Part shown: piece after piece, positions 1,903 through 23,606 of the stretch
Position numbering within the stretch: position 1 is the first letter of the stretch
Layout of the letters: the number at the start of each line of letters is the position of its first letter
Virus record (IMG/VR): IMGVR_UViG_3300021431_000069
Span: 1 to 23,606 of that record
DNA from: a virus
Length of the DNA stretch: 23,606 bases
Strand: one strand, 5' to 3'
The notes under the pieces: generated by a model
Database searches by the model: none
What the model saw: the letters and a program-made list of their open reading frames with translations, nothing else
What the model was told of the DNA's origin: nothing
Program-made: the position numbers and the translations under genes

Positions 1903-2415
1903 ATGGCTAAAGGCTTCATCAAACTGCACAGAAAAATAACAGAGCATTGGCTGTGGGACGAGAAGCCTTTTGACAAGGCTCACGCTTGGATAGACCTTCT
2001 GTTCATGGCTTCGTGGAAAGATGCGACTCGCGACTTCAAAGGCGACATAATAACACAGAAAAGAGGCGAAGTCCTGACATCCGTCAAGTCGCTTTCGCTT
2101 CGGTGGGGATGGAGCGAGGGAAAGGTCAAAAGATACATCGCGACGCTCGAAGCTGACGGTATGTGTACATCTAAACGACTGCGACATGGACGCCTTCTAA
2201 CCATTGAAAATTACAGCCTATTCCAAGATAGGCGACCATCTGACGGACTATCTGACGGACTATCTGACGGACTATCTGACGACGACAATAGAAGAAAGGA
2301 TAAAGAAAGTAATAAAGAAGAAAAGAAGGACATCGCGGACGAAGCCTCGGAAGGCGACTTCGTCCCGATGCCGGAAGAACTGAAAGAGAAGCTTCTCAAA
2401 GGCTTCAAGATGTAA
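1903..2415 (+). CDS. Putative replication initiator / replisome organiser (N-terminal winged-helix domain, repeat-encoded linker)
   Basis: GFIKLHRKI..HWLW......AWIDLL..A........RGEVLTS...LS.RWGWS.GKV.RYI..LE..GM......GRLLTIENY is typical of Firmicutes phage replication organiser N-domains. The gene sits between the annealase and SSB. Confidence 0.5.
   Translation: MAKGFIKLHRKITEHWLWDEKPFDKAHAWIDLLFMASWKDATRDFKGDIITQKRGEVLTSVKSLSLRWGWSEGKVKRYIATLEADGMCTSKRLRHGRLLTIENYSLFQDRRPSDGLSDGLSDGLSDDDNRRKDKESNKEEKKDIADEASEGDFVPMPEELKEKLLKGFKM
2239..2281. repeat. Perfect 12-bp tandem repeat TCTGACGGACTA, about 3.6 copies, inside the initiator gene (encodes SDGLSDGLSDGLSD)
   Basis: Read directly: units at 2239-2250, 2251-2262 and 2263-2274, plus a partial unit at 2275-2281. 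It is followed by a purine/A-rich stretch to about 2340. Confidence 0.9.
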
Positions 2416-2430
2416 GGAGGAGGACAAACA

Positions 2431-2823
2431 ATGAATAGAGTAAACCTTTGCGGACGGCTGACTAAGAATCCTGATCTACGAGCGACATCGACAGGAATGT
2501 CCGTCTGCTCGTTCACAGTAGCCGTCGACAGACCGAGAAACAAAGACGGATTAAAGGAGGCTGACTTCATTCGGTGCAAGGCTTTCGGCAAGCAAGGCGA
2601 GTCTATCGCATACTACAAGGGTAAAGGCGATATGATCGCCGTCGACGGTCGTCTGCAAACTGGGTCGTATGAGAAGGACGGAATTCGCCATTATACGACC
2701 GATGTAATCGTCGAGAGAGCGGACTTCCTCGCGAAAGAAAAACACGCTCAGATCGACGAAAAACAGCCTTCTGCGATGCCGTCAGGATTTGAGTCAATCG
2801 CGGACGACGATATTCCTTGGTAG
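2431..2823 (+). CDS. ssb: Single-stranded DNA-binding protein
   Basis: OB-fold N-terminus (MNRVNLCGRLTKNPDLR...SFTVAVDR...DFIRCKAFGKQGE...GDMIAVDGRLQTGSY) and the acidic C-terminal tip DDDIPW. Confidence 0.9.
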   Translation: MNRVNLCGRLTKNPDLRATSTGMSVCSFTVAVDRPRNKDGLKEADFIRCKAFGKQGESIAYYKGKGDMIAVDGRLQTGSYEKDGIRHYTTDVIVERADFLAKEKHAQIDEKQPSAMPSGFESIADDDIPW

Positions 2824-2831
2824 GTGCTGAT

Positions 2832-3356
2832 ATGAAGCATTTAGGAGACATCAAAAAAATAAACGGAGCGGAGATCGAGCCTGTTGATGTCGTGACAGGC
2901 GGGTCTCCGTGTCAGGACTTGTCTGTCGCTGGTAAACGCGCCGGACTTGATGGAGAGAGAAGCGGTCTGTTTATGGAGCAGATTCGAGTCATTAAGGAGA
3001 TGAGAGAACATGATAAAGCAAGCGGGCGAACAGATGAGTTTATTCGACCAAGATACATGGTTTGGGAAAACGTCATCGGAGCAATCTCGTCAAATGGGGG
3101 GGGAAGACTTCAGGTGCGTCCTCGAAGAGACGGCGCGGATCGTCGAGCCGTCCGCCTCTATTCCTCGACCTATCGGAAAGTGGACTCCGAGCGGGTGCAT
3201 CATGGGAGACGGATGGTCAATCGCTTGGAGAGTACACGACGCGCAGTTTTGGGGAGTACCCCAGCGAAGAAAACGTATCGCTCTTGTCGCAGATTTTGGA
3301 GGAAGAAGCGCCGCAGAAATACTATTTGTCAGAAAAGGCTTGTCGCGGGATTCTGA
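2832..3356 (+). CDS. C5-MTase fragment: motifs III, IV (PCQ) and VI (ENV), then an out-of-frame Arg-rich tail after the G8 tract
   Basis: The ATG 2832 ORF reads MKHLGDIKKINGAEIEPVDVVTGGSPCQDLSVAGKRAGL...RYMVWENVIGAISSNGGG. The conserved sequence continues in frame 1, not in this frame. Confidence 0.6.
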   Translation: MKHLGDIKKINGAEIEPVDVVTGGSPCQDLSVAGKRAGLDGERSGLFMEQIRVIKEMREHDKASGRTDEFIRPRYMVWENVIGAISSNGGGRLQVRPRRDGADRRAVRLYSSTYRKVDSERVHHGRRMVNRLESTRRAVLGSTPAKKTYRSCRRFWRKKRRRNTICQKRLVAGF

Positions 3357-3432
3357 ACAGAGCAGAGAAGCGGGGGAAGGGTCTTCCGCAGATTCTGAAG
3401 GACGCGCTTCTGAATCAGATTCAGCGGGGTAG
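3010..3432 (+). CDS. C5-MTase fragment in frame 1: post-ENV segment and motif VIII
   Basis: From the G8 tract onward the frame reads GGEDFRCVLEETARIVEP...GCIMGDGWSIAWRVHDAQFWGVPQRRKRIALVADFGGRSAAEILF. The annotated ATG 3010 is probably not a real start. Confidence 0.5.
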   Translation: MIKQAGEQMSLFDQDTWFGKTSSEQSRQMGGEDFRCVLEETARIVEPSASIPRPIGKWTPSGCIMGDGWSIAWRVHDAQFWGVPQRRKRIALVADFGGRSAAEILFVRKGLSRDSEQSREAGEGSSADSEGRASESDSAG

Positions 3433-3469
3433 CTGCGACGCTCAAAATCAGGGGGGGTCGAGAGATTGA
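3062..3469 (+). CDS. C5-MTase fragment in frame 2: TRD-type module (LSQILE...KYYLS...)
   Basis: SLGEYTTRSFGEYPSEENVSLLSQILEEEAPQKYYLSEKACRGILNRAEKRGKGLPQILKDAL resembles the LS.ILE.....KY[YF]LS block found after motif VIII in many C5-MTases. There is no ATG or GTG and no RBS-backed start in this frame. It stops 4 codons after the G7 tract. Confidence 0.4.
   Translation: MGKRHRSNLVKWGGKTSGASSKRRRGSSSRPPLFLDLSESGLRAGASWETDGQSLGEYTTRSFGEYPSEENVSLLSQILEEEAPQKYYLSEKACRGILNRAEKRGKGLPQILKDALLNQIQRGSCDAQNQGGSRD
3096..3103 (+). repeat. Poly-G tract G8 at the frame 3 to frame 1 junction of the MTase
   Basis: Counted directly. With G7 the reading would be ...VWENVIGAISSNGGEDFRCVLEE... in one frame. 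Confidence 0.95.
3451..3457 (+). repeat. Poly-G tract G7 at the frame 2 to frame 3 junction of the MTase
   Basis: Counted directly. With G6 the reading would be ...DAQNQGGREIDSLGKRAGKGALIQWNKSATLGVSQDQTLFVL. Confidence 0.95.
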
Positions 3470-3508
3470 CAGCCTCGGAAAAAGAGCGGGGAAAGGAGCT
3501 TTGATTCA

Positions 3509-4249
3509 ATGGAACAAAAGCGCGACACTCGGAGTATCTCAAGATCAGACGCTGTTTGTTTTATAAAAATGAAAACGGTTACTGAAAAGAGATACGGCGA
3601 ATATCACGAAGACGATAGAAGCGTCACTCTCCGTAACTCCGGCGCGACATATGGGGGGGGGAGCGAGGTACTTATTCTATCAAGACACAGTCGGAGCGAT
3701 ATGCGCGAGAGACTACAAGGGAGTCGGCAGTCAGTATGTCAGAGAGCAGAAGCTCATAGTAGAGGTAAAGAAATGCAAGGCATAAACGGAAGCATCGCTG
3801 GAACGCTCGACAGCAACTACTACAAAGGATGCGGAGAGCGTCAGAACATAGAAAGAGAGGTCGTCTATATGGAAAAAGAAGAAACCGCCGTCAGAAGACT
3901 CACGCCGCTCGAGTGCGAACGGCTTCAAGGGTTTCCGGATGGATGGACTGACATCGGAGAATGGACAGACTCAAAAGGTAAGAAACACAAAGAAGCGGAC
4001 TCTCCGAGATATAAAGCATTAGGAAACTCTATCGCGCTTCCGTTTTGGTTTTGGCTTCTTAGGAGAATATCTGCACAGTACGAACGTCCCGCAACGCTCG
4101 GAAGTCTGTTCGACGGGATCGGCGGCTTCCCGCTTTGTTGGGAGCGGTGCAACGGAAAAGGTACTGCAATATGGGCAAGCGAGATAGAGGAGTTTCCTAT
4201 CGCGGTAACAAAAATTAGGTTTCCAGAGGAGGGAATAAATGAGCTATAA
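3509..4249 (+). CDS. C5-MTase fragment: TRD-like modules, motifs IX-X, then motifs I-II at the C-terminus
   Basis: 246-aa ORF containing ...AGTLDSNYYKG...VRRLTPLECERLQGFPDGWTDIG...YKALGNSIALP...ERPATLGSLFDGIGGFPL...IWASEIEEFPIAVTKIRFPEE. An internal ATG at 3773 has an AGAGG 7 nt upstream. Confidence 0.65.
   Translation: MEQKRDTRSISRSDAVCFIKMKTVTEKRYGEYHEDDRSVTLRNSGATYGGGSEVLILSRHSRSDMRERLQGSRQSVCQRAEAHSRGKEMQGINGSIAGTLDSNYYKGCGERQNIEREVVYMEKEETAVRRLTPLECERLQGFPDGWTDIGEWTDSKGKKHKEADSPRYKALGNSIALPFWFWLLRRISAQYERPATLGSLFDGIGGFPLCWERCNGKGTAIWASEIEEFPIAVTKIRFPEEGINEL
3653..3661 (+). repeat. Poly-G tract G9 at the frame 2 / frame 3 junction of the MTase
   Basis: Counted directly. With G8 the reading would be ...SGATYGGGARYLFYQDTVGAICARDYKGVGSQYVREQKLIVE. 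Confidence 0.95.
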
Positions 4250-4568
4250 GAGAACAATGCGCGGAGTCGACTATCTGATTGAGAACGAACTCGACTACGC
4301 GGCAGAAAAACACGGATCGACCTTCGCCTCGATGCACGAAGGCGATAGCGTAATCCGCGAAGAGTGCGAGGAAGCCGGTCTTGAATTTAACCAAGTAGAT
4401 AAGCATTATCGCCTCATGTGGGAATTTATCAAAGAAAACGACTTCCGTAATGCTCGCAGATATGCTGAAGAAATCGCAAGCCATGCCGAGCGACTCGCTT
4501 GTGAAGCGATTCAAGTCGCGGCGATGGCTCTTAAGTTTGTCGACACAGTAGAGAAAGGAGAAAAATGA
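4239..4568 (+). CDS. Hypothetical all-alpha protein, possibly a MazG-like NTP pyrophosphohydrolase
   Basis: GAGGAGGG RBS before ATG 4239. EKHGSTFASMHEGDSVIREECEEAGLEF resembles the H-E-G...EE..E metal-binding helix of small phage NTP-PPase-like proteins. The assignment is tentative. Confidence 0.3.
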   Translation: MSYKRTMRGVDYLIENELDYAAEKHGSTFASMHEGDSVIREECEEAGLEFNQVDKHYRLMWEFIKENDFRNARRYAEEIASHAERLACEAIQVAAMALKFVDTVEKGEK

Positions 4569-6427: not shown

Positions 6428-6575
6428 CATCACGGAGATAATACTATGTGGGGTATTTGTGGGCGTGTTATGGATTATTGCACGGAACATAGGATACAAA
6501 GAAGGATTCAAAGACGGCTATGAGCAAGGAGAAAAAGACTTTAAGCCACGGAAAGGAGTAGCGAACAATGACTGA
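6420..6575 (+). CDS. Small single-pass membrane protein (51 aa)
   Basis: ATG 6420 follows GGAGAAAGGAAAG. Contains ITEIILCGVFVGVLWIIARNIG as a TM helix. The ORF-track start at 6357 would overlap the upstream gene extensively. Confidence 0.5.
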   Translation: MSNITEIILCGVFVGVLWIIARNIGYKEGFKDGYEQGEKDFKPRKGVANND

Positions 6576-6846
6576 CTATATCAAGAGAGATGACGCGATA
6601 GAAGAGTTTGAACAAAGAGACTCATATAGCGCGACATATGTCCGAGGCTTTTTAAAACATCTACCGTCCGCAGATGTCGCACCGATCAGACGCGGACATT
6701 GGATATACGACTGCTGTGATATTGTCTGCTCTGAATGTGGGACGGCATTTAGCGACGAGGTCTGTTATATGATGCGGAGCGACGCAAGCTACCATGAGCC
6801 GAAGCATTGTCTATGGTGCGGTGCAAGAATGGACGGTGAAAAATGA
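6568..6846 (+). CDS. Hypothetical zinc-ribbon protein
   Basis: AAAGGAG RBS. CSECG...CLWCGARM forms a CxxC...CxxC pair. The N-terminal layout resembles that of the 6056 ORF. Confidence 0.55.
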   Translation: MTDYIKRDDAIEEFEQRDSYSATYVRGFLKHLPSADVAPIRRGHWIYDCCDIVCSECGTAFSDEVCYMMRSDASYHEPKHCLWCGARMDGEK

Positions 6847-7061
6847 GAGAGTATTTTCTCGAGGATGTACTGCATCCAAACGGCGGTATAACTATCAAAT
6901 GCAAAGATGACCGCGACTGCGTATTCTGTGCAAAGTGCTCGGATGTGTGGTGGGATTACACAAACTTAATCTACATGATCGCTTGCGAAGACGGACATAG
7001 TCCATGGGACAGACCTTGTAAACACTTTCAAGAAGACAGCAATCCGTCGACAGGGGAGTAA
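6843..7061 (+). CDS. Hypothetical Cys-rich protein (72 aa)
   Basis: ATGA overlap with the upstream stop. CKDDRDCVFCAKC...C...C pattern. Confidence 0.5.
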   Translation: MREYFLEDVLHPNGGITIKCKDDRDCVFCAKCSDVWWDYTNLIYMIACEDGHSPWDRPCKHFQEDSNPSTGE

Positions 7062-7076
7062 ATCCTGTGCTATACA
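7047..7076 (+). promoter_or_regulatory. Candidate sigma-70-type promoter (TCGACA, 18 nt spacer, TGcTATACA extended -10)
   Basis: Hexamers read by eye at 7047-7052 and 7071-7076, with TG at 7068-7069. This is the only promoter-like sequence I could find ahead of the HNH gene. Confidence 0.25.
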
Positions 7077-7149
7077 ATAAGCGGGAACAAAAGAAAATCA
7101 CTAATACAATTTCATGTAACTCCTTTCAAGCGTGAAATGTAACTCGGAG

Positions 7150-7175
7150 AAGACAGTCGACTCGGCTGTCTTTTT
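7150..7175 (+). terminator. Rho-independent terminator at the early/late boundary
   Basis: AAGACAGTCGACTCGGCTGTCTT stem-loop followed by a T run (T5, 7171-7175). It ends 12 nt before the HNH start codon. Confidence 0.65.
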
Positions 7176-7187
7176 CGTTATGGGAAG

Positions 7188-7580
7188 ATGGGAACAGAAA
7201 CGGCGAACAGGAGAAAAGAACTCCAAGCCTTTTACAATACTCCGGCATGGAGGCGGACGCGGGAAGCATACAGGCAAAGCGTCGGCGGTCTGTGCGAGGA
7301 ATGTAAGGACAAAGGCATTATCAGAGCGGGCGACTGTGTGCATCATGTGATACCGCTATCGCCTACAAACCTGAGCAACGAGAACATCACGCTAAACTAC
7401 GCGAACTTGCGTCTACTGTGCAACGAGTGCCACGCTCGCGTACATCAGGAACGCGGGGACGAGACGAGCGGAGGACGGCGAAAGGGTAAGCCTTTAGGAA
7501 AAAAACGAAAACGGAGATACAAAATCGACGAATTTACTGGAAAAGTCGTCGTCAGTATCCCCCCCACGCGGGAAAAATAA
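7188..7580 (+). CDS. HNH endonuclease (packaging-associated type)
   Basis: CEECKDKG...CVHHVIPLS...N...NLRLLCNECHARVH is a classic HNH/zinc-finger core. It sits immediately upstream of terL, as in HK97-like cos phages. Confidence 0.85.
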   Translation: MGTETANRRKELQAFYNTPAWRRTREAYRQSVGGLCEECKDKGIIRAGDCVHHVIPLSPTNLSNENITLNYANLRLLCNECHARVHQERGDETSGGRRKGKPLGKKRKRRYKIDEFTGKVVVSIPPTREK

Positions 7581-7696
7581 TCGCTAAGGGAACATCGTTT
7601 GTGAAGGGAAGGCTTCCGTCGCATTTAGCGAGAGATACCCGCAAGTGTTGAAATTTAGCCGTTTTTGTTGAGAGATGGGAAGAACACGGCGAAGTT

Positions 7697-9430
7697 ATGG
7701 AAAATTACATACTGAAATATCATCAGGCAATACAGAACGGCTCTGTCGTCGTTGGTAAATGGATACGTTTACTGTATGAGCGCATCGTTAAAAGCCTCGA
7801 GAGCAAAGAAACGTACTACAACGCGAACGAAGCGAACAACGCTATCGACTGGATAGAGACGCATTGCTTCCACACCGAAGGCTATCTCGCTCCGAGTCCG
7901 TTAAAGCTCGAGCTGTGGCAGAAGGCTCTCGTCGCTTGCATCTTTGGAATCTACAACACCGAAGAGAACAAGAGACAATACCGCGAAGTCGTCCTGATCG
8001 TCGCGCGGAAAAACGGCAAGTCGCTCCTTTGCTCAGCCATCGCTAAATACGTTATGTATATCGACGGCGGGTATGGCTCGAGAGTGTACTGCCTCGCGCC
8101 GAAGCTCGATCAGGCGGACATCATCTATAACAACGTGTGGCAGATGGTGACGCTCGATCCTGAGTATCAGAAACTAAAGGAACTCATTCAGGAGTCGAAG
8201 AACGAACACAACAAAAAGACGATGGACGACGGCGACCTCGCTCGGCATAGACAGAGTGACTTGTTCATTCCGTCTACAAATAGCCAAGTGAAGAAGATCG
8301 CTTTCAGCGCGAAGAAGTCCGACGGCTTCAATCCATCGTTGACGATTTGCGACGAGGTCGCTTCGTGGGAAGGCGACAAAGGTCTAAAACAGTATGAGGT
8401 AATGAAGAGCGCGATGGGCGCGAGGGAGATGGGCGATCGTCCGTCTCTTTTGCTTTCATGCTCGACTGCCGGATACATCTCCGAGGGCATCTATGACGAA
8501 CTGCTTCGGCGGTCGACGCACGTCCTCCAAGGCTCGAGCAGAGAGACGAAGCTCCTTCCGTTTCTCTACATCATCGACGACGTGACCAAATGGAACGATA
8601 TAAACGAACTCGCAAAGTCTAATCCGAATTTGGGAGTCTCTGTCTCGGTTTCGTACTTGCTCGAAGAGATCGCGATCGCAGAAGGAAGCCTCTCCAAGAA
8701 AAGAGAGTTCATCTGCAAATACGCGAACAAGAAACAGAACTCGAGCGCGGCACTCTTGCCCGCTGAGGTCGTTGAGAAGGCTTGCGGAGAACACTTCGAC
8801 CTCGAGGACTTTCGCGGCTCTTACGCCGTTATTGGTGTAGATTTGAGCCAAGTTCGCGATTTAAGTGCCGTGTCGGTCGTTATCGAGCGAGGCGGTGAGC
8901 TTTACGTCGTTACTCACTTTTGGCTACCAGCCGACAAGATAGACGAGGCATCCGCGCGGGATGGTGTGCCTTATCAGATTTATATAGAGCGCGGTCTGCT
9001 CTCTCCGAGCGGGGAGGGCTTTATCGACTACCACGATATTTATAACTGGATCACGGCACTCATTGAGCAGTATGAAATCTACCCGCTTAAATGCGGCTAC
9101 GACCGATGGAGCGCGACCTACTTGGTCGACGACCTGAAGAACTTCGGTCTTCATATGGACGACGTTTGGCAAGGCGATAACCTCTATCCGATCATACAAA
9201 CGACGTGCGGACTCCTCGAGTCAGGTCACATCCACATTGGAGACAATGACCTTTTAAAGATGCACTTGCTCGACTCGGCACTAAAGATGTCGCCGGAGCG
9301 AGGACGCGGGAAACTGGTCAAAGTAAATAAAGGCTGTCACATTGACGGCTTTGCGAGTCTACTGGACGCGATGACGATGCGCGACAAGTGGAACGCGGAA
9401 ATAGGAGAACAACTCAAAAACGAAAGGTAG
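7697..9430 (+). CDS. terL: Terminase large subunit
   Basis: 577 aa. Walker-A-like VLIVARKNGKSLL, and a C-terminal nuclease region (VIGVDLS...D..A). It lies before the portal gene. Confidence 0.9.
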   Translation: MENYILKYHQAIQNGSVVVGKWIRLLYERIVKSLESKETYYNANEANNAIDWIETHCFHTEGYLAPSPLKLELWQKALVACIFGIYNTEENKRQYREVVLIVARKNGKSLLCSAIAKYVMYIDGGYGSRVYCLAPKLDQADIIYNNVWQMVTLDPEYQKLKELIQESKNEHNKKTMDDGDLARHRQSDLFIPSTNSQVKKIAFSAKKSDGFNPSLTICDEVASWEGDKGLKQYEVMKSAMGAREMGDRPSLLLSCSTAGYISEGIYDELLRRSTHVLQGSSRETKLLPFLYIIDDVTKWNDINELAKSNPNLGVSVSVSYLLEEIAIAEGSLSKKREFICKYANKKQNSSAALLPAEVVEKACGEHFDLEDFRGSYAVIGVDLSQVRDLSAVSVVIERGGELYVVTHFWLPADKIDEASARDGVPYQIYIERGLLSPSGEGFIDYHDIYNWITALIEQYEIYPLKCGYDRWSATYLVDDLKNFGLHMDDVWQGDNLYPIIQTTCGLLESGHIHIGDNDLLKMHLLDSALKMSPERGRGKLVKVNKGCHIDGFASLLDAMTMRDKWNAEIGEQLKNER

Positions 9431-23426: not shown

Positions 23427-23606
23427 CAGGACATCAAAAAGGCTGTGGATCGCTGAGGTCAAATATAAGATGGCTCTTCGCGAGATCACCGGCGCGGCAC
23501 TCTCGGCGGCGACTGGATACAGTCTGAACTATATCTATCGCGCCACAGGCGGAACGTGCGACTCGCCGAAACTGGTCAAAGCGATCAGCGACTATCTCGG
23601 CATCGA
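23413..23606 (+). CDS. N-terminal part of the 69-aa HTH-like protein (runs off the window end and finishes at 141 after wrap-around)
   Basis: GGAGGGAG RBS before ATG 23413. The ORF is open to the end of the window and continues seamlessly into bases 126-141 through the 125-nt overlap. Confidence 0.6.
   Translation, partial: MEKANRTSKRLWIAEVKYKMALREITGAALSAATGYSLNYIYRATGGTCDSPKLVKAISDYLGI
23482..23606. repeat. Terminal direct repeat (right copy), identical to 1-125
   Basis: See the left copy. Confidence 0.95.

Follow-up and report, generated by a model that had tools for sequence, protein, structure and literature searches.

Results

A permuted C5 methyltransferase gene in a gut or rumen phage

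The DNA analyzed here is the 23,606-nucleotide stretch at positions 1 to 23,606 of IMG/VR virus record IMGVR_UViG_3300021431_000069, referred to below as the window. Positions 2832–4249 of the window are the C5 DNA methyltransferase gene of a siphovirus-like phage of ~23.5 kb from the gut/rumen Oscillospirales virome, and the conserved motifs of this gene are circularly permuted. There are strong grounds for assigning the gene to a natural family of C5 enzymes with the type B permutation, in which the chain begins between motifs II and III, and for reading the window copy as a fragmented member that is most likely OFF. The family to which it belongs is a large and apparently undescribed natural class of type B permuted C5 methyltransferases.

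Translation of the window gives the gene order III, IV, VI, VIII, target recognition domain (TRD) modules, IX, X, I, II. All features described are on the + strand. The order begins with motif III (HLGDI, 2838–2852), motif IV with the catalytic P-C (GGSPCQDLS, 2898–2924), motif VI (ENV, 3066–3074) and motif VIII (QRRKR, 3262–3276). The TRD-like modules follow, and the gene closes with motif IX (RRLTPLECERLQGFPDGW, 3893–3946), motif X (GNSIALP, 4022–4042), the S-adenosylmethionine (AdoMet) motif I (LFDGIGGF, 4106–4129) and motif II (SEIEEFP, 4178–4198). A previous model-generated reading of this DNA from its letters alone (the sequence-only reading) had proposed these blocks and a stop codon at 4247–4249, and each of them translates exactly as it was given. 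The proposed order is confirmed by translation, by the Pfam family PF00145 and by a profile alignment to M.HhaI. The C5 motif set is complete (P-C, E-N-V, Q-x-R-x-R and F-x-G-x-G) but is spread across three frames, with motifs III, IV and VI in frame 0, motif VIII in frame 1 and motifs IX, X, I and II in frame 2.

PF00145, which has a cut-off of 22 bits, matches the N-terminal piece of the window gene with 81.8 bits and the C-terminal open reading frame (ORF) with 47.4 bits. The matched model positions are out of order, as the sequence-only reading had expected of a permuted gene. The first 99 residues align to model positions 46–129, the IX/X piece to 241–322 and the last 61 residues to 4–45; scanned alone, these last 61 residues score 19.7 bits (E = 6e-4), which is under the cut-off. 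The intact homologue P0123 matches PF00145 in 4 stretches with 111.5 bits.

A profile built from 47 intact homologues was aligned to the PDB sequence of M.HhaI. Profile positions 406–448 correspond to HhaI 16–56 (motifs I and II), 5–61 to HhaI 59–115 (motifs III–V), 131–156 to HhaI 145–170 (motifs VII–VIII) and 309–353 to HhaI 247–289 (the end of the TRD and motif IX). The two ends, '...RFGEK' at the C-terminus and 'GDIT' at the N-terminus, meet at HhaI residues 56 and 59. This out-of-order alignment points to a clean opening of the chain at that position, without loss or duplication. Each module is present as one copy in the window and in each related locus, which makes this a unit-length permutation and bears out the earlier statement that each block occurs once. 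Motif III comes first, motif II comes last and motif X is fused to motif I, which is the type B arrangement. PF00145 likewise places model positions 46–128 at the front and 4–45 at the end. The N-terminus at motif III and the mid-gene position of the variable region and TRDs set the gene apart from M.BssHII-like type H enzymes, and the contiguous III, IV and VI at the N-terminus set it apart from the DRM type.

The permuted order is widespread in viral and bacterial genomes

Distant blastn matches include human-faecal phage contigs that are collinear with the window across the whole of 2832–4230, and locus L001 has the same motif order in a single 590-aa ORF. A scan with the IX-X-I-II module found the X-to-I fusion encoded in at least 548 IMG/VR contigs. 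ORF classes were counted in the 79 IMG/VR loci having all modules. The gene is a single ORF of 445–783 codons in 45 of these and two overlapping ORFs in 13, a separate IX-X-I-II ORF is found in 14, and the catalytic half itself is split in the other 7. Full-length proteins of 412–524 aa are encoded on up to 69 contigs and span an identity range of 62–100%. The 71-aa X-I junction matches 890 clusters (50% identity) at E ≤ 1e-10, and among the best 150 matches it is always at the protein C-terminus. The TRD-IX-X-I-II ORF recurs as a discrete product of 126–271 aa with its own Shine-Dalgarno sequence in hundreds of contigs.

The permuted gene is also found in ~37 GTDB species-representative genomes, mostly Oscillospirales, among them the isolates Gemmiger sp. 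An87, Acutalibacter sp. 1XD8-33 and Intestinibacillus massiliensis. Over all these sources it is most often one ORF of 412–780 aa. The family members share their ends: a start of the form M-x-H-L-G-D-I, an X-I linker of the R-I-S-A-Q-Y-E-R-P-A type and an end just after motif II. The search for homologues with the same order suggested by the sequence-only reading thus yielded intact single ORFs in 45 of 79 viral loci and in isolates, and this excludes a collapsed tandem duplication as the source of the order.

The cultured Faecalibacterium phage FP_Toutatis (NC_047915) carries the permuted gene as gp14 (6463–7068) and gp15 (7110–7874). Both are annotated as 'DNA methyltransferase' and are fragments of one permuted gene. 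The gp14 product contains III–VI and then continues in the frame of an overlapping reading frame (ORF-X, described below) after a G9 tract at offset 320, with motif VIII skipped; gp15 encodes TRD-IX-X-I-II.

The window copy is divided among several reading frames

The coding frame along the window gene shifts six times, and three of these shifts are at runs of G (G8, G7 and G9). They are 0 to 1 at 3096–3103 (G8), 1 to 2 within an overlap zone at ~3260–3430, 2 to 0 at 3451–3457 (G7), 0 to 2 at 3564–3571 (TAAAAATG), 2 to 0 at 3653–3661 (G9) and 0 to 2 at 3773–3785 (ATGcaaggcaTAA). The sequence-only reading had described a single ORF ending at 4247–4249. The stop is at that position, but the ORF that ends there starts at 3509. 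Its 'frame-corrected translation' gives the right motifs under a wording that hides the six frame changes, three of them at G tracts.

The gene begins with segment A (2832–3103, frame 0), which carries the new N-terminus MKHLGDI and motifs III, IV and VI and aligns to PF00145 46–129 and HhaI 59–115. As sequenced, its ORF has an out-of-frame extension to a stop at 3354–3356 and encodes 174 aa. Poly-G tract 1 (G8, 3096–3103) breaks the catalytic half between motif VI and motifs VII/VIII and cuts IV/VI off from VII–VIII; G7 at this position would keep III–VIII in frame as one 199-aa ORF. Segment B (3104–3432, frame 1) carries motifs VII–VIII (GVPQRRKRIALVADFGG), aligns to HhaI 145–170 and ends in an unselected tail with a stop at 3430–3432. 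ORF-X (3010–3469, stop 3467–3469) lies over this region in the +1 frame. Poly-G tract 2 (G7, 3451–3457) is at the boundary between ORF-X and the first TRD module, and G6 or G9 here would fuse ORF-X to that module. This TRD-like module D (LKIRGGREIDSLGKRAGKGALIQWNKSATLGVSQDQTLFVL, 3441–3566, frame 0, stop 3564–3566) is matched by tblastn to ORF-B of locus L002, and it is also found in frame inside two genes of canonical motif order, L007 and L008.

The longest ORF as sequenced, and the only one ending at 4249, is 3509–4249 (246 aa, frame 2). Encoded in it are TRD modules E and G, with module F read out of frame between them, followed by IX, X, the linker and I–II, and the identical 246-aa product is present in two other assemblies. 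Alternative starts are ATG 3569 and ATG 3773. The latter has a GAGG Shine-Dalgarno sequence at 3762–3765, 7 nt upstream, and its 158-aa product (a TRD remnant plus IX-X-I-II) is the called gene P0001, which is common among metagenome proteins. Poly-G tract 3 (G9, 3653–3661) encodes the GGG of a TRD 'YGGGSE' motif. G9 places modules E, G and Z in one ORF and leaves TRD-like module F (YLFYQDTVGAICARDYKGVGSQYVREQKLIVE, 3662–3785, frame 0, stop 3783–3785) out of frame and silent in the present tract state; G8 would read F and then stop. The homologue P0005 is without module F and reads E–G in one frame. Module Z (3890–4231) consists of IX, X, the linker LLRRISAQYERPATLGS, I, II and the new C-terminus ...KIRFPEE, and at least 7,993 database proteins match it. 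The layout in the window and in the phage L009 is that of a split enzyme, with III–VIII ending at 3430–3432 and IX-X-I-II on the ORF 3509/3773–4249.

Coding-strand poly-G tracts are a property of the family

The only G runs of ≥7 in the 23.6-kb window are the G8, G7 and G9 of the methyltransferase gene. Family genes totalling 130.7 kb contain 113 coding-strand G runs of ≥7, and 482.5 kb of flanking DNA contain 14, a ~30-fold difference in density. The enrichment is strand-specific, with no C runs inside family genes versus 8 in the flanks. The tracts are G7–G11, recur at fixed offsets (~264–390, ~607 and between TRD modules) and mostly encode Gly-Gly(-Gly) within conserved motifs. At offset ~607, where the tract is the homologue of tract 2, G7 corresponds to a single ORF in 10 of 10 loci and G8 to two overlapping ORFs in 10 of 10 loci. 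Expanded tracts at offset ~264–390 coincide with a catalytic half split into segments A and B in 9 loci; the exceptions are L110 (G11) and L112 (G9), which have long tracts and an intact catalytic half. Like the window gene, L108 is split and has a long tract (G10) at the tract-1 offset. The sub-family nearest the window has 4–7 tracts per gene that separate TRD-like modules lying in different frames. Comparison of 14 close gene pairs revealed 7 indel events, 4 of them in G tracts. This pattern is, as judged from the sequences, the signature of slipped-strand contingency loci.

An independent genome is L009 (IMGVR_UViG_3300021387_000231), which is 97.7% identical to the window over 2288–4344 and 82–97% identical in other genome segments. 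Its tracts are G7, G7 and G7 versus G8, G7 and G9 in the window, and the 1,418-nt gene differs at 2 substitutions. The flanks differ far more, with ~40 differences in 544 nt upstream and ~10 in 95 nt downstream. This comparison suggests that the methyltransferase cassette either was exchanged recently or is very strongly constrained. Near-identical DNA came only from L009 in IMG/VR and from exact-protein look-ups (L093–L096). The G9 of tract 3 is also present in L093, L094 and L095 (the last 90% identical) and is G7 in L009, and the G7 of tract 2 is shared with L009, L093 and L094. A metagenome pattern scan across tract 1 returned three contigs that have no similarity to the window and were set aside as chance matches. 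L009 has the same stops at 3430, 3564 and 3783, and no tract state would therefore turn the gene of this lineage into a single ORF.

An overlapping +1 reading frame is conserved across the catalytic half

ORF-X starts at ATG 3010 with AAGGAG upstream at 2993–2998. It is in frame 1 before tract 1 and frame 2 after it, and G7 is needed at tract 1 for its continuity. A conserved C-terminal helical domain, the C-peptide, is encoded at 3227–3418. Every relative encodes a +1-frame peptide over motifs VI–VIII of the form '...SLFD.DTW.GKTS...SFGE.P.....S.LSQILE...KYYLS.KAC.GIL.RA.RGK.LP..L..AL'. The +1 frame has 3–8 stops in the first 170 nt and then none to about nt 600 in 56 of 58 loci; the +2 frame over the same loci has 3–12 stops. 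An ATG is found at offset 175–193 in 67 of 86 loci, with AAGGAG upstream in the sampled loci that were read. The +1 frame is also open in 30 of 31 non-redundant single-ORF genes without tracts, including those of canonical order.

Codon statistics point in the same direction. The most variable codon position switches from 3 to 1, the wobble position of the +1 frame, at main-frame codons 166–195, and the switch also holds in the 31 tract-free single-ORF genes. Four-fold sites have an entropy of 0.88 bits in the overlap versus 1.49 bits outside it (Mann-Whitney p = 1.4e-6). Synonymous-codon shuffling gave a probability of an open +1 frame of 0.004–0.32 per gene, which is weak alone, and the case for ORF-X therefore rests on the combination of this test with the codon-position entropy and the constraint at synonymous sites. 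By these measures the C-terminal ~60 residues of ORF-X are under purifying selection in the +1 frame.

Database homologues of ORF-X number ~850 and are 135–165 aa long. AlphaFold2 predicts a disordered N-terminal half and a three-helix C-terminal domain at residues ~100–140 (predicted local distance difference test (pLDDT) score 84–94). ORF-X has no Pfam or PDB match, and a Foldseek search with the model returned nothing (best E = 3). The PF00145 alignment of one second chain from a two-ORF form begins only at motif IX and leaves the C-peptide region unmatched. These searches do not recognize the C-peptide as the region following motif VIII in canonical C5 enzymes, which it may resemble at 'KYYLS.K...'.

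The same arrangement is found in canonical-order relatives from several phyla (L007, L008 and L134–L176). In the complete genome of Anaerotignum sp. MB30-C6 (L149) there are two ORFs with a 355-nt overlap, the first encoding I–VIII and the second ORF-X, the TRDs and IX–X. In an Oscillibacter locus (L166) there are two adjacent, non-overlapping ORFs, and a 61-residue domain near the start of the second is the same domain (hhalign 99%, E = 9e-18). Microvirga roseola has a single long ORF and a separate ORF-X. ORF-X (~140–155 aa) is joined to the TRD-IX-X part in two-ORF forms and is an ORF by itself in single-ORF forms. In the split forms it could make up the N-terminal part of the second chain; in the single-chain forms it could, by analogy with known systems, be a factor acting in trans.

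A programmed +1 ribosomal frameshift leading from motif VIII into the C-peptide was considered, and no slippery site was found. The motif VIII and C-peptide readings overlap by ~60–75 nt and cannot share one chain, and a frameshift was accordingly rejected as the main model. In one gene of canonical order, from a Bacteroides uniformis metagenome-assembled genome (L135, 1608–2366), a 'WGGG' tract after motif VIII joins the catalytic and C-peptide frames ('...QRRRRIFALLDSGAWGGGVLRYCLSRKACLGILRRA...'), and this joined form may be a third tract-controlled state. The only other single ORF seen with both catalytic and C-peptide parts is gp14 of FP_Toutatis, in which motif VIII is skipped.

Probable derivation of the permuted ends from a canonical phage enzyme

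The canonical-order relatives L007 and L008 are from Heliusvirales-like phages and read 'M..ALTLGSLFDGSGGF...WASEIEPFPIRVTTKRLPQMKHYGDV...' across the region of interest. They start with 'MNSKALTLGSLFDG' and end with '...RIASLNKTISTD' and '...FFVLSRIASLNKTISTD'. Comparison with these sequences shows that the start codon of the permuted gene corresponds to a conserved internal Met of the canonical enzyme. The permuted chain ends in '...VTKIRFPEE', which corresponds to the residues immediately before that Met in the canonical relatives, and the linker 'RISAQYERPA-TLGSLFDG' is the old C-terminal tail followed by the old N-terminal leader. The proposals of the sequence-only reading, that motif X is fused to motif I by a short linker and that the two termini are the halves of the canonical II–III stretch, are thus seen directly against L007 and L008. 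At the level of sequence, the derivation of the start, the end and the linker supports the permutation-by-duplication model, and the tandem duplication with complementary trimming proposed earlier agrees with the linker and the internal Met.

All permuted members seen share a conserved start, end and linker, suggestive of a single origin. Most likely, a canonical phage-borne relative gave rise to the permuted family on one occasion. The steps would have been a tandem duplication, an in-frame fusion of the two copies, loss of the outer halves and conversion of the internal Met into the start codon.

The L007 gene (922–2169) and the L008 gene (782–2017) lie directly downstream of a gene encoding a ParB-like N-terminal domain fused to an N6/N4 DNA methylase, so those phages carry a methyltransferase pair. 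The window phage has no ParB-like/N6-N4 methylase neighbor and has an SSB gene upstream instead.

Phage genome and gene neighborhood

Positions 1–125 of the window are identical to 23482–23606. These identical 125-nt ends indicate that the window is a complete genome of ~23,481 bp, circularly closed or terminally redundant. The window encodes the phage proteins Erf, SSB, TerL, portal, protease, major capsid protein, tape measure protein, Dit, a tail protein and endolysin. The SSB gene (2431–2823, Pfam SSB) is directly upstream of the methyltransferase gene. Downstream, the ATG of the next gene is at 4239, and the methyltransferase stop at 4247–4249 gives an 11-nt overlap into that gene. The genome L093 (ENA ERZ12302815, NODE_4714; 23,496 nt) is 100% identical to the window over the compared region. 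Megablast of the entire window against GenBank phages returned a single 124-nt match only.

An ORF at 1903–2415, upstream of the SSB gene, contains a short tandem peptide repeat, SDGLSDGLSDGLSDD, encoded at ~2200–2270. L009 differs from the window by substitutions and small indels at 2288–2335, ~20–70 nt downstream of this repeat.

Discussion

A natural counterpart of an engineered topology

Type B, or class B, permutants have the new N-terminus between motifs II and III and were the most active among the engineered permutants of M.MpeI and M.SssI; cp62M.MpeI has wild-type-like activity (PMC5944983). Permutants of M.HaeIII obtained by directed evolution begin between motifs II and IV (described in PMC5944983). 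A REBASE survey in 2018 listed 27 natural permuted C5 enzymes, all opened in the variable region like M.BssHII, and reported the type B topology absent among natural enzymes (PMC5944983). The absence was attributed either to tolerance of domain-sparing breaks only or to weak AdoMet binding by type B enzymes in vivo (PMC5944983). Literature searches found no later report of a natural type B enzyme, and nothing relevant on phage poly-G methyltransferases or on the overlapping ORF. The window gene is on this basis the natural counterpart of a topology known only from engineering. The sequence-only reading was aware of no described permutation opening between motifs II and III; this stands for natural enzymes as far as the literature searches go, and it overlooked that the same topology has been engineered and is active (PMC5944983). 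Its permutation reading is upheld, while the poly-G fragmentation, the engineered precedent and the overlapping +1 ORF-X all escaped it.

The engineered type B enzymes resemble the present family in being opened between II and III with the native C-terminus joined to the native N-terminus. They differ in being laboratory constructs of CG-specific mycoplasma/spiroplasma enzymes or of M.HaeIII, whereas the present family is natural and carried by phages, contains multiple TRD-like modules and has no sequence relationship to them outside the common motifs. The type H enzymes (M.BssHII, M.Alw26I, M2.Eco31I, M.Esp3I, M2.BsaI and ~22 more in REBASE) are likewise natural permutations with X fused to I and are likewise explained by the permutation-by-duplication model. 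Their break is in the variable region (IX-X-I-VIII) and leaves both domains intact, whereas the present break is inside the AdoMet-binding subdomain, between II and III. Plant DRM2 is also a rearranged C5 methyltransferase but is eukaryotic and has a different break point; its catalytic region was matched in the profile search only at its C-terminal end. The DRM order is VI–X followed by I–V. The enzymes of Bacillus phages SPR, phi3T, rho11s and H2 are orphan multispecific C5 methyltransferases with tandem TRDs in the variable region, and they have the canonical order and single ORFs and are not known to carry poly-G tracts.

Split and overlapping genes also have counterparts among known methyltransferases, and the parts of split C5 enzymes can complement one another. 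M.AquI consists of two polypeptides, alpha and beta, divided in the variable region (PMC3404938), which is comparable to the III–VIII and TRD-IX-X-I-II ORFs, but its order is canonical, its second chain contains IX–X only and its gene has no poly-G; the second chain of the present family adds I–II. Nearest to ORF-X is the beta chain of M.EcoHK31I, which is read in another frame from within the alpha gene and is needed in trans (PMC2836561). The M.EcoHK31I beta chain supplies motif IX, whereas ORF-X has no numbered motif and contributes a helical domain that normally opens the variable region. Intragenic frame-shifting repeats are also found in the phase-variable Mod phasevarions of Haemophilus, Neisseria and Helicobacter and in Campylobacter poly-G genes (PMC3711429, PMC6321876). 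Those known systems are chromosomal type III/I/IIG N6-adenine enzymes of pathogens, in contrast to an orphan C5 enzyme in phages of gut Clostridia. The present family also differs from known phase-variable methyltransferases in having up to seven tracts per gene, located between TRD-like modules.

State of the window copy

In the explanation favored here, the chain opens in the II/III loop (M.HhaI 56–59) with the old C-terminal helix of motif X fused through ~8–10 residues to motif I. The gene of the window lineage is in pieces, namely a III–VIII ORF, the overlapping ORF-X, several TRD-like modules spread over different frames and a small ORF for TRD-IX-X-I-II. True stop codons create these divisions, together with coding-strand poly-G tracts that vary in length from one near-identical genome to another. 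If tract 1 is G7, as it is in L009, the III–VIII and TRD-IX-X-I-II products could form a split enzyme by analogy with the engineered pair Mpe[62-279] + Mpe[280-61], which is active with partial complementation (PMC5944983) and mirrors the split forms of the present family. The G8 of the window separates IV/VI from VIII, and this copy is most likely in the OFF phase of a slipped-strand switch. Judged by its reading frames, the window copy appears switched off and is probably not an active single-chain enzyme.

Several points weigh against this explanation. The AlphaFold2 model of P0123, computed from the 47-sequence alignment, has a mean pLDDT of 35.9, too low for superposition on M.HhaI. The profile-to-PDB alignment was used in its place, and we infer the C5 fold of the permuted family from motif-level alignment only. 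Intact single chains are predicted to fold and methylate like ordinary C5 enzymes by extrapolation from engineered cp62M.MpeI. The true stops at 3430, 3564 and 3783 remain even with all G tracts in frame; a functional enzyme of the window lineage would need at least two chains, and a three-way break is without experimental precedent. The tract-1 comparison covers two independent genomes only, and a homopolymer miscall may be present at any single tract.

A different account makes the two-chain form the designed one, with a III–VIII chain and an ORF-X/TRD/IX-X-I-II chain from overlapping genes, as in M.AquI, and treats the single ORFs as secondary fusions. We give this account some credence, on the doubtful side of even. 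A companion idea, just as tentative, is that the poly-G tract between ORF-X and the TRD toggles or mixes the forms through slippage in replication, transcription or at the ribosome. Both draw on the purifying selection seen in the +1 frame of the ORF-X C-terminal domain even in tract-free single-ORF genes, on the exactly two overlapping ORFs of L149 and the two adjacent ORFs of L166 with the same domain N-terminal in the second, on the fusion of ORF-X to the TRD-Z part by G8 at offset ~607, and on the activity of Mpe[62-279] + Mpe[280-61]. Single ORFs are nevertheless the majority (45 of 79) and the state in tract-free isolates, and only the main frame reads the whole of the first TRD module when the tract is G7.

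The window copy and the multi-tract sub-family might instead be decaying pseudogenes whose frameshifts are inactivating mutations with no switching role. The six frame changes and three internal stops, the split of the catalytic domain by G8 and the multi-ORF state of all close relatives with 4–7 tracts would fit such decay. We consider it unlikely, since the catalytic and AdoMet-binding motif residues are all intact and the gene has 2 substitutions in 1,418 nt relative to L009 while the flanks differ at ~40–50 of ~640 aligned positions. Hundreds of contigs keep the TRD-IX-X-I-II ORF as a discrete product with a Shine-Dalgarno sequence of its own, and the disruptions fall almost only in strand-specific G tracts that encode conserved Gly-Gly(-Gly), which is not the pattern of random decay.

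It is more improbable still that the three poly-G frameshifts are homopolymer miscalls in a gene that is in truth a single permuted ORF. Removal of one G restores the frame at each tract and L009 has G7 at tract 1, but the same tract lengths recur in independent assemblies (G9 at tract 3 in L093–L095, and G7 at tract 2 in L009, L093 and L094). The three non-homopolymer frame changes and the stops at 3430, 3564 and 3783 would remain and are shared by L009, and the other window genes are intact. An assembly artefact, in which the collapse or wrong joining of a canonical gene or of two tandem copies places I–II after X, can be considered refuted for practical purposes: this is a metagenome-type assembly with a 125-nt terminal repeat and tandem duplications can collapse in short-read assemblies, but the same junctions are found in at least 548 IMG/VR contigs, in isolates, in a cultured phage and in a genome type assembled independently three times, flanked by unrelated genes and in uninterrupted ORFs of diverged sequence (62–100% identity).

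A possible methylation switch

Beyond the assignment of the gene to a natural type B family, it is conceivable, if speculative, that the permuted gene is part of a programmable phage methylation switch driven by hypermutable coding-strand poly-G. Tracts in the catalytic half, at the catalytic/TRD boundary and between TRD modules would toggle the enzyme among OFF, single-chain and split forms, and the tract states would choose which TRD modules are joined to the IX-X-I-II unit. Phage sub-populations with differing methylation could then hedge between restriction-modification and methylation-dependent restriction. ORF-X would be kept open to supply the start codon and helical domain of the second chain, or would act in trans like the beta chain of M.EcoHK31I. 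The type B order might be favored because helix X stays covalently joined to I–II, so that the C-terminal fragment, once detached, would be a stable unit for AdoMet binding.

The evolution of protein topology by duplication and trimming has a textbook example in the C5 methyltransferases. A natural type B family removes the puzzle of why the best-working laboratory permutation was reported missing from nature, and natural sequences are now available to examine the AdoMet-affinity idea. The finding also bears on annotation, where such a gene is routinely broken up into two to four fragments labelled 'DNA methyltransferase' or 'hypothetical'. The poly-G contingency tracts and the selected overlapping ORF are unexpected features of the permuted family. 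If the proposal for their role is true, gut phages would vary their epigenetic protection by means of a contingency locus, a mechanism so far described mainly for bacterial pathogens.

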